This document shows, in pieces, positions 13,329 through 64,000 of a stretch of DNA of 64,000 nt. Under the pieces are notes generated by a model that made no database searches, was not told the origin of the DNA, and saw only the letters and a program-made list of their open reading frames with translations. Every line of letters begins with the position of its first letter. Position 1 is the stretch's first letter. A program made the position numbers and the translations under genes. Source of the stretch: Psammoneis japonica (lineage: Eukaryota); contig QPGO01000169.1 in NCBI GenBank assembly GCA_008632985.1, positions 62,001 to 126,000 on the forward strand, read 5' to 3'.

Positions 13329-15472
13329 TTTTCTCTAATTCCATCCACTTCCAACTTTTGTTCATGGTCAACATTCAATGCCGCTGCTGACATTGGAGTA
13401 ATACGAGTACCAACAACATGGATGCACAACGCAATGCCATTGAAGGGGAGGATGTGGATGATTTAGAGCAACAGGACATTGCTCCTGATGATGTGCTCAA
13501 CGGCGCAGGAGTTCCCGCCACAGAAAATCCCCTGACAGGTTCCGTCCAAATGGGGCGATGCATGTCTACGAACAGAGAGCAATGCCGATAAGACCGAGAG
13601 ATGTGACGAATGTTAACAATTCTCGATGTTTACAAAAAGACGATGAAAACGGCATGGCATGGATGTGTCTGCATTCATCAAATGACGGCGACATTGCTCG
13701 TTGTGATGCGTCAGACTGACTCTTCATGATGCTGTTTTTTTTCATTAAATCCCAACTCGAAAGAAGAAGACAAAGAGGAAGATGAAGACGAGGAAAAGCA
13801 TGACACAATGAAGACAATGAGGAGGAGGAGGACGATGAAGACGACAAGGAGGAGGAGAGGAGGAGGAGTGCGGTGAGGACGATGACCGCAAGGAAGACAA
13901 GGACCGCGAAAGCGAACAAGACAAGAACAACAAAGAGGACGAGGGGACCCACTGGCAAGATGTGGACAAAAATCAGAAAGGAAAATCCTGGGTTGCCTTC
14001 AATCAAGGGTTCCACCAAGATCCATTCTCACCCTCAGTTCTGCTCACTCTCTGACAAGCTCCAGAAAGCACTCAAAAACAAATTTCCAGTTTAGATGCCA
14101 AAATTCCCTTGGAGAACAAACCTGAAGACACTCAAGAAGCTGGTGTGTCCAGATTTGATGCCACCCAAAGGAGAGCCAAAAAAGTGCGTAAAATGAAGAT
14201 GGCATCTGGAGAAGAACATCAGCATGAGGTTTTGCGTTGCACCCCCTCGGAATTTGCATCCCTGCCAGCCAAGCACCAGGATCCAGTCCAAAAACACTGC
14301 TGCAGCAGTCTTCCACTGACAAGCAATTTGTCAAAAAGGAACAGAAAAAATGCATGTCACAGACAGAGATGTGAGTTCAATGCCAAGAAAGCAAATGGAG
14401 TCATTTCAAAAGATGAAAAATTCTAGTTTGATTGCAATGAGGAAGAAGAACAAGCCCGTCGTGCTTGGCAGACACCCAGAAAAAAAAACTCCCAGTGTTC
14501 TCAGCATGCAAGATGTTGTGGCCAAAACACTCATGTCCTGTGGCCTTGTTCATGAAGCTTTGCCACCCACAGGTGATTGGCAACGTGGCTTGTCCTTGTT
14601 CAAACATTTTTTTTTGGGATTCTGACTTCAGCACCCGTGCCACCAGCAAATTTGTTCTCCGCGAAGACTGCAAATCGTTCCCAAAACTCAAACAGGCATT
14701 GCTCTGCCATTGCAGGCCATGGAGTGTCCCAAAAATTTATCGAAGCAAAGCGAGCAAGGTGTCTGCCAAGACACAGAAGAAAAGGAAGAAAAATGGCGAT
14801 TTTGCGGCGACAAAGAAGAAAAGGAAGAAGAGCGATGATTCTTCTTTTGTTGAGCAACAGCAGCATTGTCGAGAACGGGCACATCTGTTTGCAAAGCATG
14901 GCTGCAATGGCAGCGGTGAGTTTTGCCACCAATGCAAAGCTTGGATTAAAAGGTCACTTCTGAGAAAAGGGAAGATTTCAAGACGATCATGAGTGGGTTG
15001 GAGGGGAGTCACTGTGGGCACTGTGGAAGGTGCATCATTGGCGGAACTCAACAACAAATGTGTGACCTCCCTCAAGTGGAGCAACACCTCAACATGCACT
15101 GGTGAGATCAAAAAACTCTTGTCTGCTTTTTTCTTGTTAAATTGACTCAAACCTTGCCATGCTTTCTTGTTCTGTCCTGCATTCTCCTGTTCAAAGTTCT
15201 CACAGACTCGAATTCACTGGGATCTCTGAGTCTGGGAACAAGTGGAGGCACACATCACATCTCAAATCAAAAGAGGGTCTTGCGGACAAGATGGCATGCA
15301 ATGAACAAAAAAGAAGATGTTTGTCTTGGAAGAGTGCACCAAGTGGCAAAGTGAAGATTTCACCAAAGCTCCGAACTGGCCTTCTGAGTGGGCCCACATT
15401 GAAGATCCAGGACATGTCAAGCTTGATTTGGCACTTCAAGGGATGGATGCAATCCCTGACGGCATGAACGAA

Positions 15473-15594
15473 GAAGACTGCAACGGGTCGAGCAAGACCA
15501 GGGAAGACTGCAGTGGGTTCAACGATGACGGGGAAGACTGCAATGGGTCGAGCGAGACTGGGGAAGACTCTGCAATGGGTTCAACAATGATGGG
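15473..15594 (+). repeat. 30-bp tandem repeat, about 4 units, arranged as a 60-bp ABAB higher-order unit
   Basis: Units: gaagactgcaacgggtcgagcaagaccagg / gaagactgcagtgggttcaacgatgacggg / gaagactgcaatgggtcgagcgagactggg / gaagactctgcaatgggttcaacaatgatggg. Confidence 0.85.
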
Positions 15595-15817
15595 TGCATG
15601 ATCCAGCCAGTCGTGCAGACATTTTGCACATTCAACACCATTTGGAGCAAATGCAAACACAGCAAAAATGACATGAGCCCTTCTTGCACCACAAAACTGG
15701 AAACGCCAGTCGCGCAAAACTCAGAGCTTTGCATTTCAAAAAGTCATCATCCACCACAGTGTGCTCTGTGTTGCTTTTTCAAAATTGAACGCCTGTGCAA
15801 GAACATGTTCGTTTGTC

Positions 15818-17164
15818 ATGTTTGAGGTGTTTCCTGGGCACAACGCACCTCCAATGAGTGAGTCAGCTGTGCAACTGCCATCTTTGGCACACAGTGTTGG
15901 TTGTGACTGTCACGTGATGCAAATTTGAAGCACCAACGAAACCCCATTTGTGAAAGATCCCCGCGAGGAAGCATCGGCATTCATGGCCATGACTCCAGTC
16001 AATGCCTGACACAAGCAAGTGTCCACAAGCTGTCTCAGAGACATGAGAAGGAAGTTGAGTCAATTGCTGCAGGAGACTTTGACGGAGATGGTTTGGCAGA
16101 TGTTGCTGTCCTGTGGGGGAAGAAACCAAATTTCCATCTCTCGTCAAACAAAAAGGATCGATGCAGTCTTGTTTCTGATGAAACACAACACTGCACATGT
16201 CTTCATGATTTGGGTCAGGTGGACAAAGTGGCAAATCTATCTCGTTGCGGTCATGGCGGCACAGTTGGGATGCAATTCTTTGACTTCAACCTTGACGGAA
16301 AGGAAGATGTGCTGGTGCAAGTTGTGCTTGGCGACACTTTTGCTTCTGTGTCCTTTTTGTTCAAAAATGTCTGATGTGCACTTCTGTGTCAATGTTGGGC
16401 CAAAGGGTTTGCCGCGATCCAGGGAAGCACTGCATTCATGAGCAAATGTCTGATGGGACCTGGAGGGAGATGATGGGTCCGAATGGTCGGGAGTTTGAAT
16501 TTGGGGTGCTCAATGAAGAGGACTTGCCAATGGGTGGAAATCACTTCTGTGATGGAGTGCCAACTTCAATGGCACAGCTGCAATGTGAAAACCAATTTAG
16601 CAAAGAAGAGTGCAGATGTGCCAAATGCACGAATCAGCTTGCAATGTGCAGCATGCAAGCCGACAACCAAAACAAGCCAAATGTGACCACTCTCAGTGCA
16701 ACTGTTGCTGACATTGACAATGATGGTCTTGCAGACATTGTTCTTGGGTGCCGAGTGGGGATGACAGAGATGCTTTGCAAAACATGCGGAGACACCAGGA
16801 GAAGAAAATTCATTGCTTTACAACTTGACAAAAAGAACAGGGCAGCAGCAACAGCGGGTGCAGTTGTGCAGTTGAAAGCTGATCGAATGGGTCACACTCA
16901 AATGAGACAATGACACAGACCCAAATCATCAGCTTGCTGAGCCACCAAACTGACTCCAGTGGCGGCACCAAGGACCACTTGACATTTGGTCTTGGAAAGC
17001 AAGGACCAACGCAAAAAATCACGGTGCACTGGCCAAGCTGTTGCCAGCCAACGTACCTTGTTGCATGACAGGAAGAGTTGTGGAAAAAACGGAACTCAAT
17101 GATTGATCCGTGTGAAGTGGCTGCTCCAGAAAACTGTGACAAGAGCTGTTTCTCACCCTCCTGA
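15818..17164 (+). pseudogene. FG-GAP / ASPIC-UnbV pseudogene A (internally deleted, hypermutated)
   Basis: Starts MFEVFPGHNAPPMSESAVQLP, jumps to the middle of the gene (GDFDGDGLADVAVLW, DFNLDGKEDVLV), retains an intron with a dead GCAAGT donor at 16317, and ends ...PCEVAAPENCDKSCF. Several frameshifts. Confidence 0.9.
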
Positions 17165-17189
17165 TTTTCATTTGAGATGTGGGCAGGAT

Positions 17190-17455
17190 GACGGGCCAGG
17201 TCACTCATGCCTCTCAACAATGGAGATCGCAGCCTTCAAAAAGACAAAAACAGGGAGGACCGGCTTTGCGGAGTGCGCAAGTGAGTTGGTTTTCATCGTT
17301 GTCTGTTCCTTGCCACACTGCAATTTCATGTGTGATTGTGTGCTGACCAAAACACATTTGCACTCTGCTTCTGGCCATGGCAACAGCAGTTGCTGATGTC
17401 AATGGAGACCGCGAGGGAGACAGTTGTTCCAAGTGGCTGTGAAAGTTGTGGCAAA
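17190..17455 (+). pseudogene. Displaced internal fragment of an FG-GAP gene, including an intron
   Basis: Resembles copy 2 RPGQLYLNNGNRTFQK...GFVEFA. It is followed by a GTGAG donor at 17281 and then DVNGD...VPSGCE. Confidence 0.7.
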
Positions 17456-19959
17456 CCCAACCCACGAGACAACACGAGCCTCCAGAGCCAGTGGAGAGTG
17501 TGATGCCACATGCAGCGCCAAACTCCAGCAGTGGAACAATGTGAGAGGCTGGGGCAGCAGCCTGCAGTGTCGCGAAACTGTTTTTAGTGACTCATTGAAA
17601 AAATGCTGAATTCCTTGCATTTTACGGCACAGTCACAACTGAGACATCAGTCATCATTCGTTGTTGGCAATTGGCAATGACAATCATTGGAAAGTGATGG
17701 CAGTCATCAAATCAGTGAAGAGGAGGGGAGTGATGATGACCAGCCAGAAAACAGAGTGACCCCAGACACAAAACAAAAACTGCATTGCGGCAACTGCACA
17801 AACCAAACTGGTGCTCAGTCATTTGGATGGCTGCTTCCTGTGCAACAAAAACACACTCAACAGACTGTGGGCAGTTGGGGCATTTGAGTGCAAGACCGAA
17901 GATGCTCAAATGAAATGGACTCAATGAAATTTGGTTTGCAGACACAACCTGTTCAACCAGCTGGCAAAAAACATTTTGGTGTGGCAGCGGCTGCATTCCA
18001 GCCCCAGGCAGGACTCTGTGTGACATGGACCCACGGAGTTTTGCAAAAGAGCACACAGCAAAAACATTGGGTGGCTGACAATGTGCAGACAATCGCCAAC
18101 AGAAAAAGAGAAGCAATTTGTGAACACACAAACTTGCCCATGCTTGCAGTGCATTGTTTCTGGTTTGCCCTGGTGTTTTCTTCTTTTCACATGTCAAAGG
18201 AAGCATCCAGCCCATTTTGCTTGTGTCACAAATGGGCAAAACAGAGGAGAAAGCACTCAGCTTCACAAAACAAAGAGTGCAAAACAGCTTTGAAAAAAGA
18301 GCACATGTGGAAACATGTTCACATGCAACACATGTGGTGCATGATTGAAAAAAGAACATTTGTGCCACAGTCCAGAAGCAGCAGCATGAGGCTGCACCCT
18401 GGGACCTGGAGCACATCTGCCAGACAGAACCTTTTTGCACTTGGGGTGACAAATTCCACCATGTGGAAATGGGTGGGCAGCTGTCAGATTGTTCATCTCC
18501 TGGCAGATGAAAAAAGGCGGAATGCATGGAGGCCAAATCAGTGAAGGTTTCTCAGTTTCTTGCAGGGCCACGGACACCCAGCAGCATTGGGTGTGATGTG
18601 TTCCAGCTGTGCAAACCCCCACCCCAGCTGCACACCAAAAACAACATGGCTTCTGACTTGCAAGCGAGCTCTCAGCCACCACCAAAAAGTGCAGATGTTT
18701 GCCCAAATGCTGGTGTTTTGTGACACTGACAGTGCCAGTCTTGCAATGTTGCTGTTTTTGTGCTGTCAATGTTTTCATTGAAACAAATGAGTTGCAACAC
18801 AGCAGATCATTTTTGACCAAAATCTTGAAGATTTGTGCACACCGTTGTTGTTTCTTGGGTGTTGACACAAAATGCTTGTTTGTGAGGTTTTTGGAAGGTG
18901 TTTCACCTGTGATGGTTTCATTGCACCAATGCACTGCTCATGCAATTGTTGCTGATTTCACAGAAGAAATTGTGGTGCTGCATGACCTGTGAAAACTTGG
19001 ACACCAATGAAAACATTGTTTGGCTGTCCATGCTCCAGACAACAGTGAAAGCTGTGAGCACAGCCACGTTCAAAGAAGTGGAATGTTGTTTTGTGTGCCA
19101 CCTGGGGCTGGAGCATGTTGCACCCTGGCACGTGAAAAGTGCCATCATGTTCTGGTGCAACTGATCAGAAAGAAAGAAAAAGGACAAAAATGTGACAAAA
19201 TTCATGATGAAAGGTCCACTTGCTGCCCTTCCCATCCAACATTTGACACCAAAGTGCACTTGAGCAGGAAAGCAATTTCAGCTGCTCTTTTAAAAAATCA
19301 AACTGGCCAGCAACGCAAAAGGTTTGGACTCCTCTTTCACATTGCTTGGCCTTTTGTCCAATCCAGCAGCACCCATTTGGGCATGTTGATGTGTGTGTCA
19401 ATGCATCAGCAAAACATGAGCATCACGATTGTCTTTGCTGAATCTTTTCTGGACCATTTTGCATTTCACACAGGGATTGATGTCATTGCCCCTGCTTGGC
19501 GCAGTGCCAGAAGAGTTTCTTGACAGAATGTGGTTGAGAATGATGGCAACAAGCCCCAAGCCAGAGGGAGTGGAGAGCAAGCCCACCTCCTCTGGACCCA
19601 CCACAGCTTGATGTGAGAGTTGCTCCAAGGAGTTGTCATCAGTTGCAAGTCAGTGAGAAAACAGTTTTGTTTTGGTGTTGTTGAAAATGGCAGGGGCAGT
19701 CTGCATTTTTCCCAAATGGTGGGGTGGTTGTTGCTTGTCATTGCACAGTTTTCTGCCATCTCCCAGAGACACATCAAATTCGCCAACCCACCCTTTTTGC
19801 ACCCTGCAGACAGACATGTCTTGCTCTCTTCCTCCATGTGCAACAATTTAAAAAAACCAACTTCAACAAAATCTCAGTCAATCATGGAAGAGAGATGAGC
19901 TCTTGCCCCTTGTGTGCAACAGACCACTTGGTCAATCTTGCAGAACAATGTGGATCCTG

Positions 19960-20580
19960 AGGGAGGGCTGGGATGAGTTTTTTCAAGACTGCAATCTAGA
20001 TGGTTGCGTTGACATGCTGATTGTGTGCAAAGATCCTTCAAGACATCACATCTGTGAGTGCACAAGACTGATGGATTGTGGCAGCCAGTGGATGGGGCAT
20101 TGGGTTCATGACTGAACCCACAATTGATGCTGCCTGCAAGCTGCTGGGAACAACCAAAGTGTGCAAATGTGAGCCACAAGTTCTGGCCCACAATCCTCAA
20201 GCCATGACTCCATTGCAAAAACATCCAGCACTGCCACAGCCAATGTGAATGACCAAAGTGCACAAATGTGCACCACAAATTTTGACCCACAATCTTCAAG
20301 CCACAACTCTGGCTGTTGCAAAAACATCTGGTGCCAGCACATCCAATGCAAACAACAATGGGTTTGTGGATCTCATTTTGAGGTGCAAGTTTGGAAGCAG
20401 CATCATCATGCTGCACAGCGCACATGGAGACCAATCAAGAAACAGTTCTTCCCCTTGTGTTTGCACAGGACTGCAAGGGCTAGAGACACTGGTGTGTGTG
20501 ATTGTGCAGCTCAACACTGGCAGAGGGGATCTGAACACCAAAAATGAGGCTGCAAGCCAAACTTGGGTGACTGGCTTGTT
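19960..20580 (+). pseudogene. FG-GAP / ASPIC-UnbV pseudogene B (heavily decayed 3' part)
   Basis: DCNLDGCVDMLIVCKDPSRHHICE and NNGFVDLILRCKFGSSIIMLHSAHGDQSRN align with DFNLDGxxDMLxVCKxPGRHRIYE and DNDGxxDIILGxxFGSxxxxRNxxGDxxxN of the intact copies. Confidence 0.75.
20153..20352 (+). repeat. ~99-bp tandem duplication (2 units)
   Basis: Units start accaaagtg at 20153 and 20252 and share ccacaatc.tcaagcca and ttgcaaaaacatc. Confidence 0.8.
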
Positions 20581-21825
20581 CCAGCCCTGGTGGGTGGGAG
20601 CTTGCTCTGCTGCTGGGCTGATTTTTTGTTTTTGTGCCACATTCAGTGCATGTGCATTTCTGCTTGACTTTGGTGGATTTTGTGTCACTTTGCAGTGCCC
20701 CAATTGGGCAATCCAATGAACAGCTTTTTGACTTTTTCTTTGAGTGTGAAGAGGAGGCGTGGCTGTGCTGCAAATTTGGTCCTTCACTTGGGCATGAAAG
20801 ACAAGTGCACCAAGGTCTCCACAGGCCTGCATCTCATGGAGTGATTTCCACCAAGGGATGAGGTGCACTCACATGCAGCCCCACCCAGGGCTGCTTGGAC
20901 ACATCAGCGCCAGAGCTTGCTGTCAAATGGCCTGCAGCTGTGTGCCCCGAGATGGTCTTTGATGTTTGATGGCTCAAGGAAAGGTGTTTGCTGCACAAAG
21001 TTGTCACTTCACAGAAATGTGGAACACACTGCTTTGAGAAGAAAAATGAACTGCAGGCATTTTGTCACGCACATGGATTTGGGCCAAAAGTGCAGCATGA
21101 TGGCAGGGTGCTGGCCACCTGGTGGTTTGAAGCTGAGCACAGCAAGTGCAGCATGTGCCAACACTTCACAGGCAGAGTGAGGTGCAAGCTTCTCCTGAGA
21201 AAAAAGCTGATCATGTTGATGATGTGCACCAGAGCGAAGATGCAAAGAAGACCTCCACTTCCTCTGCTCCTCCTCAGTGGCATCTGAAGCCCAGCTCAGC
21301 GAAAGTTGCGAGGCACTCTCGTCCGTGCTGCAGAATCTACGGCACGTTGCCGGTGGCTGCACGGCTTGCGGGAGCCTGCGTGCGTGGTTGCGGTTGGCGG
21401 GCTTCGTCTCGCTTTCAGCTTTCGTCTTTCGTGTTCCGTGTTCACACAGAGCCGGCCCGCAGAGCGAGCATGATGATGCAGTGCAGCAGCGACAACCAAC
21501 AAAAATTCAGTGCGGTACGAGAGGCCGGGGCAAGCGCGTCGCGAAACTATGTTTAGCAACTTTCTGACGGAAACAAAAAAAATCCTTATTAACAGTCATT
21601 TGTTGGCAATAACAAAAGGGAATTTTTTGTGCATGACTTTTCTTACTATCTCTCCATCTGCACGCGAAGTGACATTTTTCGCTCTTCAGTCAGAGGTAGG
21701 TACTCGTCAAAACTTCAAAGCCCCTCACATTTTCACCTGCATGCGCCGCATGAGCAAAAATAGAGCTCGCCTAGCTCCACCCATACCCACGGAAACTGGT
21801 CAACTCATTTTTTAAATGAGGTGCA

Positions 21826-24213
21826 ATGTTCGAATTACTTCGTGGGTACAATGAAGCTCCCATGACTGACTTAGCCATGCAGCTTCCGATGCTAAATCAC
21901 GGATCTCCGCATGCACCTGACTGGAATGGCGATGGATTTCTTGATCTGTGGCACCATAATCATTATTCGTTCAGCGGGGATACAATTAGATGGTCTGATC
22001 CAAGTACAGAGAAAAAGGGTCCAGATAGCACTCCAGGCGGGTGCATGGTTGACTGGGACGCTGTGTTGCGGAACGGGGACACGGGGACGTACTCTGCGCC
22101 CGAACATGGCTTTATTTCGTGGGCTGACGATGTTTCTGACTGGTGTGTAAGTTAATTTCGGTGACAAAAAAGTTACGTTTCGTTGTCAACGTCGTTCTCT
22201 CACAGTGTGTTTGACATTCCAGTTCGACGTACATTCCACCTCCTTTCTTGACATCGATAACGACGGCGTGAAAGACTTGTTTGTGACCACAGGGGGCGGC
22301 AAAGGTTTCGGAAACTCCTTTCGATACAATAACTTGCTCTTCTGGGGAGAGAGGACAAACTCGACAGTTGGATTGCGTCTTAAAGGAGGTAGACAAGCAG
22401 CCAAGAAGGTTGGTTTGGAAGGCCGTGATCACAGAGGGAACGAGAGAGGCCGTCATCAATACTGGATGGACGCCAACGGGGACGGACTTTTGGATGTAGT
22501 AACACTCACCGAAGAGAACAAGGCAGATTCGATAAAGCCTGGAAAGCTCTATCAAAACTTAAATGGAAGAAAGTTTGTTGAAGTTGAACATTTTGGAGGG
22601 AAGGATTTCGCGGAATTCGCGGAAATGGCAATGTACGTTTCGCATTTCGTGAAGTTAGAGTCGTGTGTAACTCGTTACTTTGTCCAGTTGCTGGACTACA
22701 CGCGGTTTGTTTCCAAGTCTTCTTACGCTTTTCTCTTCCTTTTTCACTAAAAGACTCACAGATATTGATGGCGATGGCTACGCTCGTGAGTAGCCCTTTT
22801 GTTCTGCAGCTGCATCTTGGAAGGCCTTCTGCAAGGCTGATCCATAGGCATCCGTCACAAACAAGACTCGCTCAACCTTTCCATTGCCCCTTTTTCGTTC
22901 TTTTCGTTTCGTTCAGGAGAGTTTCTTGTGCCTTCAAACTGCGAGCCGCGCAGCTGTGAGAACGAGGGCGTACCTCGTCGAGAAAACTTCGTTTGTAGAA
23001 GGGCGCCTCGCGGAAGCATTACAGTGTATAAAATGGACCCCGAGAAAGCATTAATTCGAGAAGAGACGTCTCGGCCTGCGAAAGCCTGTGACTTTGTGCG
23101 ATCAATAGCCACAGGGGATTGGGATAATGACGGAATTGCAGACATTGCCATCCTTTTGGTTAAGGAAGTGCATTTTCATTTCTCGACGACAAGACTCAAA
23201 CGATGTAAGCGCACCATCGATGAAAGAGAACGTAAAAAATGTCCCTACATTTTGGGCAAACCAAATGGCAAGATAAACCTCAAATCCGCTTGTGGCGAAG
23301 AGGGGGCAGCAGGTATCCATTTTGCAGATTTCAATCTCGACGGAAAGGAGGATATGCTTGTGTACGTAAACTATTTCAATCCCATCCCTTACTTCACCAC
23401 CTCATCCTCTTACTCACGACTCCTCCTCCTCCTCCTCCTCCTAGTGTTTGCAAGATACCTGGTCTTCATTTCATCTATGAGCAGATATCAAAGCGCACCT
23501 GGAAAGTCATTAAGGATAGTACGGGAAAGCGAGCTGATTTTGGCGATCTCAATGACGCGTCGTTGACATCTGGTGGGTCAAAGTTCTGTGAAGGCGTACC
23601 AATTTCCAAAACGAGCTCAGCGAGGCGTTGTAAGCAACCGTTTCATAGCCCTGAGGAATGCAAACACGTGCGCTATAACCAGCAATACGTTATTTGCAAC
23701 ATGATAGCAAAAAATCAAAATCAAACCGTTGCCAGGGCTTTTAATCCCACCGTTGTTGACATTGACAACGACGGATATCAGGATATTATAATTGGGCACA
23801 AATTTGGCAGTACGGTGATAGTCCGAAACACATTCGGGGACTCCGATCCAAACAGATTCTTTTTGGTACGATTAGACAGAACGGCTGGAGCTGCGGCAGC
23901 CATTGGGGCGGTTGTCAAAGTTCGCTGCGACCGAATGGGACCAAACGGCAACGAAATAATAACGCAGACTCGTGTTCTCAGCTCCCTTGGACATGGCGCC
24001 AACGCTGAATCCGGCAACGAGGATAGATTGATATTTGGGCTTGGAAAGAAAGGAAGGGTCAAAAGACTCACAATACATTGGCCTCACTGTTGCGAACCAA
24101 CAGTCATTTCTCGTCACAATGATACCAAGCTTTTTAATTGGAAGAGCTCAAATATGATGGAACCGTTTGAGATATTCCCACCTGAGAATTGTGACAACAG
24201 TTGCTGGTTGTAA
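21826..24213 (+). CDS. FG-GAP / ASPIC-UnbV protein, copy 3; exons 21826-22146, 22223-22632, 22754-22785, 22917-23361, 23445-24213
   Basis: Same motif order as copy 1. Four phase-consistent GT-AG introns and a 32-nt micro-exon encoding LTDIDGDGYA. Confidence 0.88.
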
Positions 24214-26703: not shown

Positions 26704-26754
26704 CCTTCTTAATTTTGTTGTTGTGAAGAAGCGATCCGTAGCACTACAATACCT

Positions 26755-26837
26755 AGGGGATGCTGTAGCAAAGTGCGGTGATCTGGAGCAACACAACACC
26801 TCTTTATGAAGGGGATGCCGTAGCAAAGTGCGATGAT
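26755..26837. repeat. 28-bp direct repeat (2 copies) upstream of the copy 4 start codon
   Basis: aggggatgctgtagcaaagtgcggtgat (26755) and aggggatgccgtagcaaagtgcgatgat (26810), with 2 mismatches. Confidence 0.8.
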
Positions 26838-52740: not shown

Positions 52741-55700
52741 GGAGAATCATGCATGTCTTCCTTTTGTTTGGTGGGTTGAGAACCTGCAAAAGCAAGAATC
52801 ATCATCATCCAAGACATTGGCAGGAGAACATCCACTCGAATGCACAAGAACGATGACCTCATCATGACAGTTCTCAGGGGTTGTGTCACATGTGTTTTTG
52901 CCAGTTGGTTTTGAGGTGCATCATTGGTGGAACATGTGCTTCCAGTTGTGTGCACATGTCAGGGGCGAGGAACAAGAAGAGAGGAGAGAGAATGCAAACA
53001 GGGAGAACAGGGAAGAAGGTGAGCAAAACAGAGGCAAGAACAGGGAGTTGAAGTGAAAGAGGAACAAAAGAATCAAAGGGGGAAGAACAAGTGAAAGGAG
53101 GCAGCAATTCTGTCTTCGCACATCTTTGCACTGCAGAAGCCATGGAAAAATGGGCACATGTCCGGTCACGCACCGCAGGCAGCTGGCTCCGAGTTTGTGA
53201 AAAAAAGAAAGAGGAAAAGGAGGATGGAGGAGAGGAGAAAACGCCATGCGTTCAATTCGCACGTGCGACGGCCAGACCTTTTCACGATTCTCACAGAGAC
53301 CAGACGGAAACAACAAACTGGCCATGATGCGGCAACAACTGATGTTTGATCTTGCCACCAAACCTTTTCCTGTCAGAAATGTCAATGCATGACATCCACA
53401 TTTTGCTGTGACAAGTGTGTCAATGGCAAGAGACACTGGAGAAAACCCAAAAAATGGACAACAAAAGCTCCTTCCTGCAGCTGTGCTGCTGCCCAGACTC
53501 TCTAGATTTTCACAACTTGCACAGCTAAAACTGCTGATGAGCAGCATGCTGTGCTGTTTCTCTTTGGCAAGAGTGTGCCAGTGAAAAGAGAGGCAGGAGA
53601 AAACCCAAGCAAGAAGTGGGGCAAACACAAGGGCCCTTTGCATGGCTTTGCTGCAAGACTCACTCAGGCTCTCAGCTCTCACAGCTTGTGCACTTCAATT
53701 TAAGTTTGCACTTGACAGATTGAAGGCTGACTCTCAGCAATCAGGTGTCAGGTTCTGATGTCACACTGTGCCTGTGAGCAGGAGCACCAAGGCTGCTTGA
53801 CAGCTCCCAGCAGCCAGCTCTTTGTAAAAAGAAAAGACTGCAAAAGGAAAGGATTCACCTGCTGCAACACAAGAGACAAGCAATCAAGAGTGCATTTTCC
53901 TGTGGTTTGGTGTCAAACAAAATGTGCTTGTTCTTGGCACTGTGCTGGCAAGACCAGCTGCGGGGCACAGCCCCACACCCCGCCAGCCACAGCCACTGTG
54001 GGGGCTGGCCTCCTCTCATGATGCTGGCATTGGGCCAGATCATGCAGCTGCACCACTGCAGTCAAATGGCATTTCTGCCAGCTCTGCTTGAAAAAATGAT
54101 TGCAAAAGGAAAGGAGCCATCTGCAGTGCAAGAGACAAAAACCTCAGCAGCTGCACTCTGGGCTAGCCAACCAACAGAGATGAAAGGACCACATGTTGGG
54201 CTGCAAGATAAAAGGGCTGTGTTGGCCACAACTGGCACCAATCAAGTGCAGGATGTTTTCCTTTCATCTGAGGAAATTTGGGGCCACAAGAAAAGCCCCT
54301 GCAACCCAAAACCCCGCTTTTGCTCACACATCTTGATTTCCCCCTCATTGGCTTGTTGAATGAAGGAAACAAGAAAAAGCTTTCCTCTTTTGCATGAAAA
54401 TTGAACAACGGTTCTGCGTGCATGTCGGCTCCGTGCATTCTTGCACATTCTTTGAATGCATGGTCATCCCCACAATTTGTGTTCCACTTTTGGGGCCAAA
54501 AGAGGAGAGGTTGCTCACAGTTGGGCCGTGCATCGACGAAGTTGCAATCTGTTCAATCAACGTGGTTTCGTGACAACTCATGGGTGCAATGTTGAAAATC
54601 CTGTGTCGTTGCCATTGCCGATGAACAGGTGGACGTTAAAAGCTCTTGACAGCTTTCAAATGAACAATCAAGTGATGAATCATCATTGCATTCTGTGCTG
54701 CTGTTGGCCTCTGCTTTTTGGCACAAGAAATTTGAACAACATGAAAAGAGAGTTCACACGTTGCATTTCTCAACAAGCCCTCAACTAAAGACAAGGACAC
54801 CCCCCCCAAGAAGGTGGCACACAGCTGTGCCAGAGCTTGTCAGGGTTGTGTTTGGTCTTGTTTGAACTCAGCAGGAGTTGCATTCTTTGAACATGGAACC
54901 AAGCGTCGTCATCCACCAAAAAGCAATGGGACGCATTCAGAAACTCCTCTCGCATTGTGAGAAGCAGACACAAAAATCGCATTTGTGTGCACCGATCTCG
55001 AGCATTAAAAAAGCCTTGCATCATTTCCCAGCAGTGGTCCCATGCTAGAGTTGTGTGAGCAACAATGCTTTCCTGGCATGCCACGCATCCCCAACTCGGA
55101 ATTCTCCTGGTCCCCCATGACAATGTTGTTGCAAAACCGCAAAAGAAACCCAGACATGGTCCAAATTTGACATGCAGCATTTGGCCCACCTGCATTAATT
55201 TCAACAACCCAAGAATCTGCAAAGGATGCAGCACAATTTGCCAAGCCTTTTGCAAGAGATTTGTCACTTGTCGCTGTGAGACGACAGACATGTGGGAACA
55301 ATTGTTGAAGAAGAACAGCCTGAATGAGCAAAACACAGATTGAAGGGCAAATGTGCTGCCACATTGTTGTGATCGTGATGAAAGAACAGTGAAACAAAGT
55401 GCTCTACTTGCAGTTTGCAGATTGTGTGGAAAAAGCAAATGAGAGAAAAAAGAAAAAAGTGAGGCAATGCGACCATTTCTGCTTTTGTCTTCTGTGCAGT
55501 GCGATGAGTCTCTTGATGCTCACACCTGGGTGGTTTCGCATGACATGACAATCTTGCAGGCCCCACAAGTTCCTACGTACGCAGAACAAGTGCAAAAAAT
55601 CATGCACCTCAATGTCTTGGTGGAAAGTGGTGATGTCTTTGACATTTTCTCACTTTTTTCCCCAAATTGAAAATGGCACACAGAGAATTGCCTCCCACAT

Positions 55701-58700
55701 TTCGGGATGATGCACTGGATTTGTTGTCATTGTTCTTTCTTTTGCTGATTGCAATGATGGCAGCATCTTGGCAACAGGCTTGGATGGCTCCACAGCACAA
55801 GCACTTGTGTCAATTTTGATGAAACTTCTTGTCACCAGATGCTTGGAAAGCATTGGCCACCAAAGCAGAGGAGCATTGCTGTGTGTCTCGCAGAGGTGCG
55901 GGCACCTCAACTGCCACAGCAAGATTTGCAGCAGCATGATGAACCTGCAAACGCCAGAGAAGCACCCCCCGTGAAGGGCAGTGCCAGAGGCAGAGAGCCG
56001 CCCTTTGGCCTTGCCCTTTTTAACTTTTTGGTTGGAAGCCATAAAAACAGCAGTGTCAGGGTTTCTGTTGCAGTTTGGCCAAGCCAATGGACACCACAAA
56101 GGTTGTCAGGAAGGCATTGCAGAATTTGCACAGGAAAGCTGTGAGACTCCAGCTGTCTGAGCAGCTTCAGCACTTGTCATCAAAGGCGACACGCTCTCAA
56201 GCCAACCAGCCAAAAGGCTTTGGCCATTTCCAGTGTGACATTTCTGGCAAATGAGCTTTGGAAGGAGCACTGCAAGGACACCAACATGCTGGGGCATTGT
56301 TGCCAAAGGGCTGTGTGAATGTGATGAAACAAGATGCAAAGCAGGCTTGAGAGCCAAATGAGAGGTGTGCCAACAACAACTCCCCCAGTCGACTCCTGCT
56401 GTAAAAAAGACACACAAAGCAATTCCACCAGAATCTGCTGCCACCAGCATGCTGCACTTTTTTGTTTTGCCCAGTTGCAGGACAAGCAATGAGCAATGTT
56501 GCAAACATGAGGCCATCAGATCTGATGAGGATGTTGGTGCTGACAGAGCTTGCACCTTGGTCAAACAGGACAAAGCTGGCTGCAAACATCTGTTCCCAAA
56601 AGGTCTTTTCAACATGAGATGGGTGACAGGGGATCTAACCTCCCAGTTGTTTGCAAAATGCTGAAGAGGTGTGTCCCAAAACCCCTGGGCTGCATGTGGA
56701 GAAGGAGCTCCACAAGAAGTTTGTCAGCAGAAAGCAACAGAGCTTGGTCGCAGAGAGGCTTGGCTTTGCAGTTGTTTGTGGGGTGCCACCCAGACTGCTC
56801 AGCACCATGTGGCATGTGATGGTTGGGGGGCAAAAGAAAGCCAGAAAGCTGCCACCCAGTTGCAGCAGGCACAGAGCTCCTCCTGTGGCCAGATCTGTGC
56901 GCTGCAGTCAGTGCTGCTCCTCTGAAATGAGTGAAGCACAAGGGCAAGACAAGTGATTGAAGGAATGAGCAGCCCTGCTCCCTTCCATCATGGATCCAGC
57001 AAAACAGTGCTTGCAGCAATCAGGGCAGACTTGTCATCCATCCTGGTTCTTCACCAAAGACTGCAGAGAGCACAAAGGCAAGCAAAAACAGGCCATCAAG
57101 GCAGGGTCAACTCCAAGCCCACACTTGATGTTTGCTTCACAGTGCCCACAGCACACTTCCAGAGAAGCAGGCAAATGCTGCATGTGTTGGTTTGATGCAT
57201 TTTCTTAAGTGACCCCATGTTGGCAATGCCTCTTTCACCTTTTCAAAGGGGTGCACAAAGGCCATCACAGAGGAAACTGAGGAGGTGGTGCCCATTGGGT
57301 GGGTGAGTCTTGGGGGCAGGTTTGGTGTGGTGGCAGCATTGTGATGCCATGTTTCTCAAGGGCAGAGCTGCTCAGGTGTCATCTCCCATGCACTGCATGG
57401 TTGAACCAGATGCGTGGTCTCATGGAAAAGGACAACAAGCTCTCCAAAAAGAGCACTTGCAGTCTTGCCATCACAAAGTGTTGCTGCCATCATTCATCAA
57501 GACATGCTTGAAACCCGTGGCCAAGTTGCTTGGAAGCATCTGCCAGGGCCACAAAAGTTTGCATCTTTCACAGCCAAATGATGGGACAGCTGGTGTTGTG
57601 CATGGCAACATGTCCAGTCCAAGAGTGCACAGATGATGGGCTGTTGAACAAGCCATCTTGCCAGCCAAGAACCTGCCCAGCTGGTGTTTGCATGACACTC
57701 AAGCCGTCTTGATGGGTCTGGCCTGGGGCAAGCACTTGATCTTGAATCTTGTGCAAATGTCTCTGTTGGTCTCCAAGTTTCTTTTGGCAGCTTCAACTTG
57801 CTCTTGACTTGGGTTGTTGTGGAAGCAAGCACAACACTGTCACTGGCCACAGTGATGTCAAGTTAGATCATCGCACCTGCTGAAGGCAGCTGAGGCATCC
57901 TGCCACAGCTTGACAGCTCAGCTTGCAAAATTGAGGTTTCTTGCCCTTTGGACCCTTGACAAGCCATTTGGAGTGCACAGCTGATGATCAATCATGAGTC
58001 ATGACATTTTCAGAAGTCAGGTCCAAGCCTGCCATGTGCCAAACAAGGCATCAGTCATGCACAAGGTGAATGCCCCCCTGTTTCTTGTCCTTGACAAAAT
58101 GGCAGGTGCTGAAAAAAACCTCAAGTTTGTCATCATGAGCAAGATTGAAATCCTGTTTCAGCAAAGCTGTTGTTCCCTGGTCATTGACTCTGATCTTGGA
58201 CAGAGAAATCAATGCTCTGTTTTGACACACAGAACAAGCATGATCCTGGGTTTGGCAACTGTTCATGTGCCAATTTCAGACTGCTGCCACCTGTTGCACT
58301 CCAAAAATTCCTTGGCAACAAATTCAAACCAGGTGTGTCCAGTGTCGCTCCAGCAGCATCCTGGAGCAAGTGGGCTCCAAATCAACTGACAGACATTTCT
58401 TAAATCTGTCCACTGGGTTTGGGAGGTCTGGAATCTTGAAAGTCACAGGCACGGTGTGGTGCTTCTCAGGCAATTTTTTCAAGCACTGGCTCACTGACAG
58501 CTGACTCTTTACTCACGTCCTTTCAGTGGTTCACAAAGGTGGTGGAGACAGGGTGGGCTCAACATCTTGTGCAGAGCATCTCTTGTTCAATGCTGGACCC
58601 ATCTGACATGCCAGCTGGCACATCAATTGCTCCATTTGAGCTGCCCTTCCTTTTGGTGCCCAGGTGAATTCAAGTTCTGTTTGCCATTTAGAGAAAACCT

Positions 58701-61299
58701 TGGTTTTGCACTTGCATGCTGAAAACTCAACATTGTTGTTGTGGGTGAAGAGCAAAATTGTGTGTGTGTGGGGCATTTGCTTCTCTTTTTGCTGAGTGCC
58801 AGCAGGAAGTTGGACACGTGACAGGCAAATGGCAGAGGAACATCTCTGCTGCTTGTGAGAACAATTTGTGGTGGCTTGGCAGCTTGGCACTTTCCACTTG
58901 CTGCATTGGGGTTCTCTAATGTGCTGAACACCTTTGGCACTGACAAGACTCTATTTCGTCTTGCTTGATCTCAGGAGTGAACCTCATTGGGGTTGCATTC
59001 TTCAGGTTGATGCAGTGCTTTGAGCAGCCAGCCTGGCAATGAGAGGAGTGCATCACACCGCAGACCACCATGACCCTGTGTCTTCCTGAGAGGAGTGTTG
59101 TTGACAACACGTGCTGGTCAAGGCAAGCTGCTGAGCCCACAGAGCCAGAAGCTCCTGAGGTCATTGGTGTGAGCTTGATTGCAAAAGAATGAGTCACCAG
59201 GCTCAGCTTCCCCACAGAGAACATTGATGATCAGGTTGTTGGAGCTCCTGACAATGAGTGTTTGCCATTTGTCAACATTGGATTTTCTGGCAGTGCAGCT
59301 GATGTTCCTCATCATCACAACTGGACCTCCTGACTGGATGCTGTTGTGCCTTCATTGTTTTTGTCAGCAGCCGCTGGCTGTGGAGGCAAAAGGCTGTGTG
59401 GAGAGGACAGCATGCACATGGCTTTGGCTGTGTTTGCTGCACCAACTTTGCCATTGTCCACACCCACACTGATGTTGGCAGGATGACAGTTTCTGTGCAC
59501 TTTGACTGGAGCACCACTTGCACCTTTGACCCTGGAGCTGGCTCAAACTGGAGAGCTCCTTAGACACCATCCTCTCAGGTCATTGAATGCAAAGAGAGTT
59601 GGCTCCAACATCAGTGCAGTGCTCAATGTTGTCATGGTGCTGGCCACAGCAAAGCACAGAGTGGGCACCTGTTGATGTTGTTTGGCACAGCATCTTCTGC
59701 AATGGGCAGCCTGACAGGGCTTTAAGAGGAGTTGGAGCCAACATCATTGATGACAGCTTTGATGCACTGTCACTGTCTGGCCATGGCAAGCGACTCTTCT
59801 TCTCCCTCTGAAGAGCATGGCTGGCTCCTGGAAGGGTGCGCACACAGCAGAACATGCCCCAGGGCCTTGCAACTGCACAGCATCTGCCACCATTGCTGTC
59901 AATGTTGAGTTTGGGTGTGGCAAGAGACAGGGTGTGAATGGCACTTGCAGCTCAAGTGGCAAAGCAGCTGGCAGGAGCAGAGTGGCCACAGCAAGCAAAG
60001 AACATGTGTCCAAGAGAAATGACTCCCGCATTTGTGGTGCACTGCAGAGCAAAGACTGGCAATGAAGTCCTGCACAGTGCTGTTGTTGCCAAGCATGCAG
60101 CTGGGTCATTTGCACCCAAAAAATGTGGCAGCGTGTCTTCCAGTGCCTGGAGCCATCTTGTTGGCACATTGCCATTGTTGGCTGCATTGGCAGCATCTCC
60201 ATCAGCAGCTCTGTCAGCAGCTCCATCAGTGAGGTTGAAAGTGGTGGCATCTGTGATCTCAGCTGCTTGTCTGCCTGTCAGTGCTTGCAAGTGCAGCACT
60301 CACTTGGAGGGCAAGTGTGCCACCCATTCTTGCTTTGGGCAGAAACAGAAATGTCAGAAATGTGTGACACCATCATGTCACATCTTGGCATCTCTGAGCT
60401 TTCAAGGAGGAAGAGGTTGGATTGTTGGAAGTCTTCTTGCAGAGCTTTCTCAAAAGTGGGGAGCTTTTTCTTCTCAGCAAGTGGCTCCCAATCCTTTTCA
60501 TTTTCGGCCTTGGGACAGCACCAGGCATCAATCTTGTGTTTGCAGCCCGCCAACATGGCCACTGCGTTCTCCTGAAGAGTGCCAGTGAAGGCCTTGAAGT
60601 TTCCTTTCTTTGTCATTTGGCAACAGCTCCACCACCCTTGATGCAACTGACTTGTTGAGTGGTTGCCCACTGGTTTTTTCGATTTACGCTGGGACACAGC
60701 GCCTGCACAGCATTGCACGCACATGTGCACATGCAAGACTCTGGCACATCATCCATCCTGCATCCATGAGTGTGCACTTAAAATGTCATGCGCAGAGGCT
60801 CGCGATGGCCAATTGCGTGCAAGAGCCCAGAGCAAGCCGTGAGCTCAGCCATTGCAGTTTGAGGTTTTGGGTTTGAGTGTGCCAATGCCACCCATGATGG
60901 TGTTGTCAAGAGGAGAGAGATTCTTGGAACACCTGCATGTGCAACCAAAGCACACTGTAAAAAATTTTGGAGGTGGAGTGGTGAGAACAAGTGGCAGCAG
61001 GAGTGAGCACAGATGCACAGTGGAAAAAGGTGCATCATGGGCAAATGGTGCTGATGAAGTGCAAAGGCAGAAAGAGTGACATGATTCTGCCATTGGTTGG
61101 AGAAATTGTGAGAAGGAGAAAGTTGATTGGAGAGAGAGAAGATTGTTTGCTCCATCCAATTGATGGGGCAGATGATCTGACTTGCTTTAAGTTGGTCCCC
61201 GACAATGGGTTGGGTCCCCAGCATCTGTCCATCTTTGGACTCGGAACCCAAATTCTCTTTCACTCCCTTGCAGCTGAGCAAAGAAGACCACAACACAAG

Positions 61300-64000
61300 C
61301 AAGTTTGGCTCATGATTTCTCAAATTGATCTTTGGGCAATGGTTTGGCAAAGATGTCCACAATCTGTTCCTTTGTCAAGATGTGTTCAGTTGCAATGGTC
61401 TTGTTGACAATGTGAGATCAAAAATGATGCAAACGGACAGACCAGTGCTTTGTGTGCAGTTGGTCACATGTGATGGTTGGCAGCAATCTTGATGCACTCT
61501 TGTTGTCTTCAAAAGTGTGGTGCATGACTCTGGTCAATGCTGACAACACTGAAAACCCTTTTGCATTTTAATTCTTGCAAAGGTTTTGCACCACAACAAC
61601 TTCTTGCAGAGCTGATGACAGAGCCATGCACTCAGCTTCAGCTGTGCTCACAGCCATGACAAGTTTTTCATCTTTGAAATCCAAACAACAGGGTGTCAGG
61701 CACTCAGCACATGTGACAATGCATGCAGTGCATGAATGGATGGAGGCAGGATCATGAGAGGAATGATCTTGCCATGAGCCTGCTCAATTGGTGTCAACAA
61801 AACATTCTGGACCACAGGATGGATCGGGCCTCACAAGGCAAGTCCCTGTTTGCATGTGTTGAGAATGCAGTGGCAAGCTCACATGACAGCTTTTTTGTGT
61901 TCTTGATTTGGATCATTGCAGAAATGGGCACACTGTTGCACAGCCCATGGTGATGTTGGGGTGTGGAGTTGCCTTCAAACAGCTCAAACAACCAACCACA
62001 GTGCAACAACTCCACTTTCTGACAGCAGGCAGACCTTTGGGATGTTGGGGCATTGCACAATGCATCTTGGTCCATTTGGATTCTGGGTCCAATCCAATCA
62101 TGCACAGTGCACAATTGATGACTTGTGGTTGAGTGAGGGTGATGGACCCATCTTTGTCATCATGTTCAAAACAAGTCCTGAGGCAATCTGCAATTTGCTG
62201 TCATCAGCAAGGCCAAAATTTGGTGGATGTGAGTGACTTGGATGGTGACATGAGAGTGCCATTGTCCATGCCGAAGAAGAAAATTGTTCCGGTGCGGGTT
62301 TTGCACAAACACATGTGTTGATCTTTGATTGCTCCCAGCCCCTGGCAAGAAGCCCTTTGCAAAGAAATTGGAGTCAGGCATGCAAGGCATCCTTGAGTCT
62401 GTGCAAATTCTTGACAAGCTCATGTGCACTCTTGAGCTGGTCAATGAATTTAGATGGATCTGGAATGAAAAAGTTTGAAGGCACTCTTGCTGCTTTCATG
62501 CTTGTGTCCATCTGGGCTGGGGCTTGAGGACAAGCAAATGCAAAATCAATTGATTCAAGGTGCCAGCCTTGAATCAGTGTGTGTTGACAATCATGAGATG
62601 TGTGGTGCTCCACAAGGCAACAGGTGAGCAAGTGGACCAATGGCCCAATCCTTCAACAGATTTGTGCCCCCCAGCACAAAGTCATGCCTTGCATTTGATG
62701 ATCTCACTGATGGGATTGCTTTTGCACTTTGTGGACCAGACCATGGGAGTGGGATGTGACCCTTTGTTTGGCACAGATTTGATTGGCACCACTTTCCAAT
62801 GTTTCCTGTCAATGTGGTCTTGCAGCTCCTTCTTTGCAGTTTTGACAAATGCTTCTTGGTCAGACTGTTTCAATGCCTCTTCCAGGGTCTCAGTGTTGGG
62901 GTCCCTGGATTTGGCTGCCAGAGCCATGGTGCAGTGAGAGAGCATCACAAGTGGGTGTCCTTCATTGTGTGGCATTCCAGGTCAGGTTGCAGCAAGGGCT
63001 GATCTGATGAACAGTCTTGCAGAGGGGAGCACTTTGTCATGAAGGCTGCAGCCACCTTGAATGTCCTCATGGCCACATTGGTGCACAGTTTGTTTGGTTT
63101 GACATGCCATCTGGATTGGGCTGTGTGTGGAGCTGGGGCACTGTTGTCAGCTTGCTGAGTTGGGTTTCTTGGAGTGATTGGTGTCTTCAATTCCCAAAGC
63201 TGGAGTTGGGATTTGTTCTGCATCCGACAACCCTCCTTGATCTGTGTTGATGTTGACATCTTCTGGCACATCTTCTCTGTTGTCAATGAACATTGGTGCA
63301 GGATCAGGTGGATCCTTGTTCTTGGAGGCTGCCTTGGGAGGAATGCTTCTTGGCAAGTTGACAGTGCCCTTTTGAGTTGCCTTGGCTGACTTCTCACTTT
63401 GCACCTTGGCCTTTGCCTGCCACACAGAATTGAATTTTGCATCTCAGCAACATGCTGTGCATGCAATGAAGTTGTGGTAAAATGTTTCCAGTGAGTGTGT
63501 TGAGGACAAGTGGCACATTCAAAGCATGGCTCTCAGCAAATGTGTGAGAAAGATTCCAGCATGCAAATGATTGGTCTGCTTGTTGCGGGACTTTTGCTCC
63601 TGCAAGGACAACTCTTGGATGCATGCTGGGGACCCAAAGGGGATGGAAGTGCTCAAGATTTGGCTCAACTGGTGAGCTGGAAAACAATGAGTTGGGGTCA
63701 ACTGTCAAGTGTTGGCACTCTCACAATCTTTTTGTTTTGGTGTGGCATTGCAAAGATGTTGGCACAGTGCTTGAGGGCTGCCCCAGCCACAACAATGGGT
63801 GCATTGCCTTTGGCGTTTGATGAACAGCATTCAGAGGAGCAGTTTGTGCTCCAGTGGCAATGTCCATCCTCAATGTGGTTTCTGGCTCTGCCATTCTGGT
63901 GATGAGCATTCATGCCACAAACAAAGCTCAGGGTTCAGCCGGCCACTTCAATTGCCACCTTGAATGCTTTGATGTCAAACAGACTGCTGTCAGTGACAGT
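61300..64000 (-). mobile_element. Ty1/copia-type LTR retrotransposon pol (IN-RT-RH), hypermutated, continuing beyond the window
   Basis: Integrase AHHQNG and PNLEHFHP come before RT (KELQDHIDRKHWKVVP, MVWS, IKCKA, IDFAFACPQAP, KNLHRLKD), then RNase H STAEAECMALSSALQE (~61602-61660) and FEDNK. IN before RT is the copia order. Confidence 0.9.

Follow-up and report, generated by a model that had tools for sequence, protein, structure and literature searches.

Regional hypermutation of TpA to TpG and CpA in nuclear DNA of the diatom Psammoneis japonica

How can DNA lose nearly every TpA dinucleotide over kilobases while the genes beside it keep theirs? This question is raised by a stretch of 64,000 nucleotides of contig QPGO01000169.1 from Psammoneis japonica (assembly GCA_008632985.1, positions 62,001 to 126,000 of the forward strand; the window in all that follows), which is nuclear DNA of a diatom. 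An earlier note, made from the letters alone, had claimed that TpA was turned into TpG or CpA in four sharply bounded domains of the window and had read this as a candidate genome-defence system. Here, we analyzed the composition of the window and compared the affected DNA with paralogues, homologues and a public sequencing run. The loss of TpA proved to be hypermutation and not slow drift. We consider it probable that nuclear duplex DNA is subject to a mutation process that changes T:A to C:G at TpA, over kilobase-scale domains that also undergo CpG decay.

TpA and CpG are depleted over the same four domains

The domains, named D1 to D4, make up 32,454 of the 64,000 bases (51%) with TpA observed/expected ratios (o/e) of 0.03-0.16, so the claim that they cover more than half of the window holds. 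Their positions and composition are as follows.

160 to 1810, D1, partly converted: TA o/e 0.16, CG o/e 0.69; 23% of TA and 76% of CG left
13330 to 13960, left fringe of D2, with TA thinned out and CpG at its normal level
13750 to 21340, D2: TA o/e 0.033, CG o/e 0.28; CpG survival 0.40 at 13960-17700 and 0.11 at 17700-21300
38290 to 44500, D3: TA o/e 0.048, CG o/e 0.30; right edge graded across 44000-44900
47000 to 64000, D4, continuing past the end of the window: TA o/e 0.046, CG o/e 0.18

The DNA between the domains is normal, as had been stated. Pooled over 29.7 kb, its o/e values are 0.64 for TA, 1.00 for CG, 1.12 for TG and 1.15 for CA at a G+C content of 0.469. In all four domains TG and CA rise to 1.4-1.9, with a G+C content of 0.466-0.495, and 1-kb steps within the blocks gave 0.00-0.09 for TpA, 0.05-0.42 for CpG and 1.6-2.1 for TG/CA. 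Relative to the numbers expected at normal density, 17 of 74 TA were found in D1, 17 of 341 in D2, 21 of 279 in D3 and 52 of 764 in D4 (Poisson P 1e-15 to 3e-250), and the longest TA-free gaps extend up to 1668 bp. Near-complete conversion had been proposed for all four domains; it applies to D2-D4, whereas D1 is partial. Within D4, CpG survival is 0.27 at 47440-56000 and 0.10 at 56000-64000.

The sum of TA, CG, TG and CA is 237-246 per kb in every region, and the gain of TG and CA therefore equals the loss of TA and CG. About 43 TA per kb were lost in the domains. Depletion among the 32 strand-symmetric trinucleotides is restricted to the four with TA (domain/normal ratio 0.01-0.12) and the four with CG (0.20-0.27), while words without TA, CG, CA or TG have ratios of 0.85-1.28. 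The ratio is 1.02 for AA/TT, 0.91 for GA/TC, 0.90 for AT and 0.92-1.09 for AAA, AAG and AAT. The value for AA/TT indicates that there was no general drift from A to G; equal A-to-G change in all contexts, a possibility raised in the earlier note, was not what we found, the A:T to G:C change being confined to TA.

The TA and CpG losses extend over the same DNA. Domain edges are 0.1-0.6 kb wide, and the TA edge coincides with the CpG edge or lies slightly beyond it; at edges other than the left fringe of D2 it is displaced outward by 0.1-0.3 kb. Within that fringe, positions 13750-13960 are purine-rich on the plus strand (GAA/GAG/GAC repeats) and would encode an acidic low-complexity peptide; here TA is gone and CpG is normal. 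At the right edge of D2, 200 bp at 21300-21500 are CpG-dense and TA-poor and lie upstream of the next gene (start at about 21826). They may be a promoter island at which D2 stops.

A further effect concerns reading frames. TAA and TAG stops number 71 in 30.8 kb of domain DNA versus 618 in 29.7 kb of normal DNA, and since these are nearly gone and only TGA stops are left, long open reading frames (ORFs) run across D2-D4. ORFs of 150-500 amino acids occur there in all six frames, for example at 47255-48748 and 41226-42572, both without a Pfam match. They are likely to be spurious and a trap for gene callers.

Ancestral TA and CG were turned into TG or CA, in place and on DNA

The direction of change can be read from a tandem array of FG-GAP/ASPIC (UnbV) genes at 7038-29829, which consists of five intact genes and one or two dead copies in D2, and from two other gene remnants in D3 and D4.

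7038 to 9431, plus strand: intact FG-GAP paralogue c7, reference copy
10255 to 12608, plus strand: intact FG-GAP paralogue c10, reference copy
15815 to 17143, plus strand: hypermutated FG-GAP/ASPIC paralogue (pseudogene), found by tblastn and Pfam; frameshift near 16890
16318 to 16382, plus strand: intron retained in the pseudogene; the paralogue 5' splice site GTAAGT reads GCAAGT
19903 to 20512, plus strand: second, fragmentary FG-GAP remnant, found by tblastn
21826 to 24213, plus strand: intact FG-GAP paralogue c22, reference copy
24392 to 26913, minus strand: intact FG-GAP paralogue c25, reference copy
27613 to 29829, plus strand: intact FG-GAP paralogue c28, reference copy
38208 to 40414, minus strand: Ty3/Gypsy pol remnant in several frames, homology stopping near 38415; reverse transcriptase at 39866-40414, RNase H at 39343-39570, integrase H2C2 at 38710-38952, and the rve core
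51110 to 52958, minus strand: FAD-dependent oxidoreductase remnant (FAD_binding_2, NAD_binding_8/DAO)

Members of the array share 36-59% protein identity. Columns were taken as conserved when at least four of the five intact paralogues have the same residue. All three conserved Tyr columns are changed in the pseudogene, to CAT, CAT and TGC, and only two of 11 conserved Arg are retained, the others reading Gln (four), Lys (two), His (two) and Cys (one). Other conserved residues persist (Cys 12/12, Asp 15/16, Gly 22/23, Phe 5/5, Leu 11/12). The N-terminal third of the pseudogene was not found by tblastn in the window. Its intron lies at the same codon as in c7, c22 and c25. Around the intron c7 reads GATATG...GTGTAAGT and the pseudogene GATGTG...GTGCAAGT; c7 has GATATGCTAGTGTAAGTC where the D2 copy has GATGTGCTGGTGCAAGTT. 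One TA>TG and one TA>CA change thus stand 8 nucleotides apart, and the TA>CA change hits the splice donor. This bears out the earlier note in that both outcomes occur on the same coding strand. That an intron-containing host gene had been struck was likewise borne out: the copy was converted where it stands, with its intron kept.

The two other remnants tell the same story. In the Gypsy element of D3 the YxDD catalytic box of the reverse transcriptase reads CVDD. Compared with 80 homologues, its integrase has, at ten conserved Tyr columns, five Cys, one His and one Phe, and E, L and M outside the 60-314 core; conserved Ile became Thr (ACA) or Met (ATG) and conserved Leu became Pro (CCA) or Ser (TCA). 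That intact copies might be equally TA-free, a doubt raised in the earlier note, was not borne out: all 120 of the integrase homologues listed contain at least 2.3% Tyr (median 4.1%). The FAD-dependent oxidoreductase remnant in D4, aligned to solved 3-ketosteroid dehydrogenases, shows Y>H, Y>H, Y>C and R>H. As conserved Tyr and Arg are replaced in the domain copies, the ancestor had TA and CG, and both were turned into TG or CA. This agrees with what had been proposed for TA; the Tyr columns of the FG-GAP copy, the integrase, the FAD remnant and the public copies described below all point the same way.

The rate of ordinary decay was assessed by a leave-one-out substitution test that used the nucleotide positions on which all other FG-GAP copies agree. 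The pseudogene has 13 transversions at 279 sites (4.7%), and the intact, selected copies have 15-34 at 360-388 sites. Transitions number 36 in the pseudogene and 17-29 in the intact copies, the excess residing in four classes: G>A following C (8/9), C>T preceding G (3/4), A>G following T (6/12) and T>C preceding A (4/11). With transversions at a normal level and an excess of transitions, more than 93% of TA was erased while ordinary decay is barely measurable.

The ratio of TG to CA in the domains is 0.86-1.10 and hence strand-symmetric. Together with the conversion of an intron-bearing host copy in place, this symmetry identifies chromosomal duplex DNA as the target and not the RNA or complementary DNA (cDNA) of a retroelement, in line with the earlier note; an intron kept in a pseudogene in situ excludes an RNA or cDNA route. 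The label 'A-to-G' that the note had given the change is not established. The conversion of TA to TG or CA is plain, and the hit base cannot be named from it: TA is self-complementary, which makes A>G indistinguishable from T>C.

Flanking bases set the rate, and sites change autonomously

Survival of TA depends on its flanks. It is 0-2% in ATAN and NTAT (about 1% for ATA/TAT overall), 4-9% in GTAN and 18-24% in YTAR (Y, pyrimidine; R, purine; N, any base), with 18% in CTAG and 24% in TTAG. ATAT is absent from the domains and occurs 104 times in normal DNA of similar size; for ATAC/GTAT the numbers are 0 and 171. The same rule is visible in the young domain D1, where ATA/TAT is found three times versus 39 expected while 63% of YTAR is left; 16 of its 17 surviving TAs lack a preceding A and 14 follow C or T. 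CpG survival, in contrast, is flat over flanks at 0.17-0.38. A single enzyme acting on CG and TA through a common flank rule was rejected on this ground. A per-context mass balance for the CA versus TG product was dropped because estimates fell outside 0-1, the flanks themselves changing too.

Along the domains the order of TG and CA is random (runs test, z = -0.05, 1.0 and 2.8), with no heterogeneity at 500 bp (P 0.12-0.58), and the runs test revealed no strand-coordinated tracts in the domains. Each site therefore behaves autonomously. A single hit removes TA from both strands, for which reason double hits are expected to be rare; only two Arg (CGY) were found among 41 Tyr columns in three public copies, consistent with self-limitation.

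TA loss precedes CpG loss. TA survival is 0.23, 0.07, 0.06-0.075 and 0.025-0.056 where CpG survival is 0.76, 0.40, about 0.28 and about 0.10, respectively.

A public sequencing run carries the same letters

A public run contains 96% of the words sampled from 12500-22400; no RNA run matching this interval was among those listed. Contigs built from k-mers of the run at 11000-14501, 14503-18026 and 17998-22651 differ from the assembly in 2, 5 and 3 letters. They span both junctions of D2 and show the same TG and CA letters. Word depth is 64-75 inside D2 and 60-77 outside. Strand-specific misreading of a modified base would give two versions at half depth, and as none was seen the domains are no artefact of base calling.

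All ten differences between assembly and run fall in D2 (7.6 kb), whereas the roughly 9.8 kb of normal DNA counted on those primary contigs is free of them (Fisher P 2e-4). All are transitions, of which eight are CpG/TpG-CpA, one is TA/CA and one is of another kind. CpG decay in D2 thus looks ongoing. The sole TA/CA difference is the following.

21070: CA in the assembly, TA in the run contig (context GTAC)

Gypsy copies without tyrosine occur in public data

When 1.84 billion representatives were scanned in full by HMMER with the integrase of the window, 150 matches were listed, five of them without any Tyr and three with one. P0373 (606 amino acids) and its two nearest relatives (66% and 63% identity) have 0, 0 and 1 Tyr in 606, 679 and 494 residues. 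In the 120 proteins scanned for Tyr content, this trio included, the median is 3.8% and the next lowest value 2.0%. At conserved Tyr columns the trio carries eight His, five Cys and one Arg of 14; seven His, seven Cys, one Phe and one Arg of 16; and eight His, one Cys, one Phe and one Gln of 11. His or Cys stands in two or more of the copies in 13 columns, and in 10 of these the outcome is discordant, which, judged from these translations, indicates that copies of one family were converted independently from a TA-bearing ancestor. Conserved Arg reads Q, H, C or W in 23-58% of cases and is changed in any way in 32-74%. With Arg partly kept and Tyr gone, TA was ahead of CpG there also.

Gypsy pol or integrase 'proteins' with no or one Tyr, and with His or Cys at Tyr columns, are P0373, P0390, P0404, P0344, P0291, P0253, P0341, P0368, P0293 and P0386. 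Such public proteins are probably translations of TA-free DNA of this or other organisms, and the long spurious ORFs that TA-free DNA yields have thus already entered public databases as Tyr-free 'proteins' by way of gene callers.

A survey anchored on the fumarase gene of the window (see below) yielded 42 metagenome loci. Seven of these (L001-L004, L007, L010 and L012; 45 kb) are diatom-like, with 78-79% identity to the window fumarase, and most others look bacterial. No 1-kb window with a TA o/e below 0.2 was found in the seven diatom-like loci, a sample too small to speak for distribution. Two survey loci that did contain such windows were set aside owing to 65-68% G+C and a CpG o/e of 1.2-1.4.

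Proposed mechanism

The process would be confined to kilobase-scale domains that are also under CpG decay of the 5-methylcytosine (5mC) type. Hits at each palindromic TpA would be independent and would alter one base pair out of the two, so that CA or TG arises at random, and a converted site, being no longer TpA, would be safe from a second hit. Flanks would set the rate, ATA/TAT being fastest, followed by GTA/TAC, with YTAR at least 10-fold slower; in the favored contexts TA conversion would outpace CpG decay of the same DNA several-fold. Any sequence in a domain, be it retroelement, host pseudogene or spacer, would lose its Tyr codons, TAA/TAG stops and splice donors. As the cause we infer an enzyme, or a symmetric modification of a base at TpA that an enzyme puts in place. 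A symmetric change is preferred over a burst of single-strand deamination because of the palindromic specificity, the random choice of strand and the parallel with CpG decay.

What this could mean for the diatom can be put more specifically, and we regard it as plausible, if somewhat short of probable, that the organism possesses a second mutagenic agent of duplex DNA, be it a mark or an enzyme. This agent would read TpA as DNA methyltransferases read CpG, be directed to the same silenced domains and change T:A to C:G, amounting to a counterpart of fungal repeat-induced point mutation (RIP) that is neutral with respect to G+C and disables transposons and stray gene copies. The domains are presumably silenced, methylated chromatin; 'genome defence' would be a reading of purpose. 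The chemistry that we favor, albeit tentatively, would start from a dioxygenase of the TET/JBP type that oxidizes the methyl group of thymine, giving 5-hydroxymethyluracil (5hmU) or 5-formyluracil (5fU), which would mispair with G. It has the better natural precedent, since in dinoflagellates a TET/JBP enzyme makes 5hmU with a preference for TA and TC, enriched on repeats together with 5mC and tied to silencing of transposable elements (TEs) (PMC11572971).

Several points weigh against this view as a whole. TC/GA is not depleted (0.91), though dinoflagellate 5hmU also prefers TC, and dinoflagellate 5hmU is not reported to erase TA; nor is 5hmU known in diatoms, where the literature matches listed concern dinoflagellates only. 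Moreover, dinoflagellate repeats rich in 5hmU are described as less diverged (PMC11572971). As judged from the letters, the only sign that links the domains to methylation or heterochromatin is the CpG loss over the same DNA. TA/CA changes make up only one of the ten differences between assembly and run in D2, with too few TA left to judge current activity, and the confirming run is probably from the same sample as the assembly, its platform being not recorded. The P0373 trio comes from Logan assemblies and may stem from the same genome as the window.

Alternative explanations

A deaminase is the strongest competitor, even if we hold it to be unlikely. A DNA adenine deaminase of the TadA/ADAT2-3 type, recruited to silent chromatin, would turn the A in 5'-TA-3' into hypoxanthine, which is read as G. 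The natural target of TadA is A34 after U33, and laboratory variants of TadA deaminate deoxyadenosine in DNA. In keeping with such an enzyme, the footprint requires T before A and only words containing TA lose A:T pairs. Of the N. crassa sites edited by the fungal Tad2-Tad3-Ame1 complex, 96.7% have T before the A (PMC13431901), and bacterial TadA shares with Tad2-Tad3 (ADAT2/3) messenger RNA editing of ascomycetes a near-absolute requirement for T or U before the deaminated A. However, the members known so far work on loops of RNA or on single-stranded substrates. We know of no natural adenine deaminase for duplex DNA. Single-strand deaminases usually give strand-coordinated tracts, which are not seen here. 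Ascomycete editing takes place in RNA hairpin loops with G preferred after A, the fungal motif being TTAGGA, whereas the change described here is in DNA, favors T or C after A and leaves TTAG among the least affected contexts (24% left).

Far less probable is patch repair, one of the candidates of the earlier note, in which T:G mismatches from 5mC deamination would set off non-canonical mismatch repair, with A>G errors introduced nearby by a Pol-eta-like polymerase. Its attraction is that TA and CpG loss cover the same domains within 0.1-0.6 kb. Yet the WA hotspot of Pol eta (W, A or T), known from the literature on somatic hypermutation, includes AA, and AA/TT is not depleted (1.02). D1 has lost 77% of TA versus 24% of CG, and in the left fringe of D2 TA is thinned where CpG is normal. 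As TA loss is ahead of CpG loss, it is not a by-product of CpG events, and the candidate is disfavored.

Editing of transcripts by an ADAR- or ADAT-like enzyme, followed by reverse transcription and reinsertion, is highly improbable. ADARs prefer U before the edited A, and a retroelement is indeed present in D3; the same preference is shown by fungal Tad2/3 (PMC13431901). For D2 this route is refuted, as the FG-GAP pseudogene stays in the tandem array with its intron. Spacers and remnants of unrelated genes are equally converted over 6-17 kb, and both strands are hit equally without tracts.

An artefact, whether through misreading of a modified base during sequencing or through an error of assembly or polishing, has almost no probability left. 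Systematic miscalls at modified motifs do occur on some platforms. Here the run contigs match D2 with 10 differences in 7.6 kb, carry identical TG and CA letters and span both junctions at even depth, which settles a doubt that the earlier note had raised; the pseudogene is also frameshifted and has lost its N-terminal part, and further Tyr-free copies exist in independent public assemblies.

Selection against TA or origin from a TA-poor donor, suggested by the mild under-representation of TA everywhere (0.64 in normal DNA), is just as remote, given that conserved Tyr, Arg and the reverse transcriptase catalytic box are destroyed, which means decay and not adaptation, that the pseudogene is a local paralogue with a common intron position, and that the relatives of the retroelement have normal Tyr content.

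Relation to known mutation and defence systems

Fungal RIP, which depends on RID/DIM-2 and on a sexual phase, resembles the present case in that transitions are regional, near-saturating and context-specific on both strands of chromosomal DNA, and that transposons and gene copies are killed with adjacent genes spared. Unlike RIP, which turns CpA into TpA and lowers G+C, the process seen here destroys TpA (o/e 0.03-0.05 in D2-D4) at a G+C content of 0.466-0.495 versus 0.469. RIP is triggered by duplication; D2 is single-copy by depth except at 17997-19115, and the five untouched paralogues are only 36-55% identical at the protein level. TEs of diatoms are methylated by DNMT5a, and diatoms carry DNMT4 enzymes that are related to RID and whose function is not known (PMC9998398). 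Given these enzymes, a RIP-like layer in diatoms is conceivable, but the change from A:T to G:C is not explained by them.

Decay by deamination of 5mC, as in methylated transposons of vertebrates and basidiomycetes, is present here as a second component that turns CpG into TpG or CpA site by site on both strands. Its signature is apparent from the letters in a CG survival of 0.10-0.76, in Arg replaced by Q, H or C and in G>A after C (8/9). It cannot remove TpA and does not account for the whole shift, with about 43 TA per kb lost and Tyr turned into His or Cys; TA loss is faster, has its own flank rule and reaches slightly further. ADAR hyperediting and APOBEC3 are similar in that hypermutation disables mobile elements. 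They differ in acting on RNA or single-stranded cDNA in strand-coordinated clusters within an element, whereas here strand choice is random, only TA is hit, and a gene copy and spacers are affected. Very-short-patch repair by Vsr of E. coli depletes CTAG in favor of CCAG/CTGG and is thus a methylation-linked repair with a T:A to C:G bias at a palindrome containing TA. A Vsr-like repair was ruled out, as CTAG is among the contexts least affected here (18% left versus 0-2% for ATAN/NTAT).

To our knowledge, all known genome-defence mutators (RIP, APOBEC, 5mC decay) run from C:G to T:A. A description of regional hypermutation from TpA to TpG/CpA was not found in searches of the full-text literature for diatoms or elsewhere, subscription journals being outside their coverage. 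The footprint, as distinct from the machinery, is what we see; it matches no described mutation or genome-defence pathway and we rate it as new. If the process is enzymatic, it would be the first system known from nature to change A:T to G:C at one defined dinucleotide of chromosomal DNA. Transposon control in major primary producers of the ocean would gain a further layer, and the process would point to a new modification of thymine or adenine in stramenopiles or to a natural DNA adenine deaminase; the DNA adenine deaminases that we know of are so far laboratory creations only. TpA o/e offers a simple genome-wide screen for domains of this kind.

Content of the domains and of the normal DNA

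Of 379 domain ORFs of at least 62 amino acids, 258 (108 + 150) were scanned against Pfam, with 70 short ORFs at 54.8-64 kb and a further 51 of about 90-105 amino acids outside the scan. Matches were obtained in 11 of the 258. Besides the FG-GAP copies, the Gypsy element and the FAD remnant, the following features were recognized.

125 to 580, plus strand: zf-MYND ORF within the partly converted D1 (Pfam)
17997 to 19115: repeat with 2-3 genome copies (word depth 155-212 versus about 65)
50322 to 50786, minus strand: ammonium-transporter gene fragment (Pfam PF00909, E 2.7e-13)

The ammonium-transporter fragment had no match among PDB sequences. The remaining domain DNA is unrecognizable, as heavy conversion would leave it. 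The earlier description of the affected DNA as TE-rich finds support in one Gypsy pol remnant and one repeat of 2-3 copies, but not in the rest, which includes at least four remnants of host-type genes. Self-comparison of the window by blastn revealed only the FG-GAP paralogues and one 60-bp tandem, and an alignment of TE family members copy to copy is therefore impossible within the window.

No deaminase, dioxygenase or methyltransferase was detected by Pfam in the 23 scanned ORFs of normal DNA in the window, in agreement with the statement that no responsible enzyme is visible there. The normal DNA carries, apart from the FG-GAP/ASPIC array, ORFs with PP2C and FHA domains, a short-chain dehydrogenase, a PARP-like gene and the following gene.

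30531 to 32315: class I fumarase, intronless, 83% identity to diatom proteins (MMETSP, JGI, NCBI)

The ORFs at 32964-34373 (plus strand, 469 amino acids) and 12639-13328 (minus strand, 229 amino acids) belong to no Pfam family, the latter having its terminus at the left edge of D2. D3 and D4 are separated by a 2-kb island of normal composition (44900-46900) with two minus-strand ORFs of 172 and 209 amino acids without a Pfam match; it is presumably a live gene that escapes conversion. Within the FG-GAP array, c7, c22, c25 and the dead copy have the intron and c10 and c28 lack it, which implies intron loss or gain inside the array. Finally, positions 22785-22916 in normal DNA have a word depth of 441-1600 in the public run versus about 60, with several loose ends; this is a high-copy short repeat without TA depletion.

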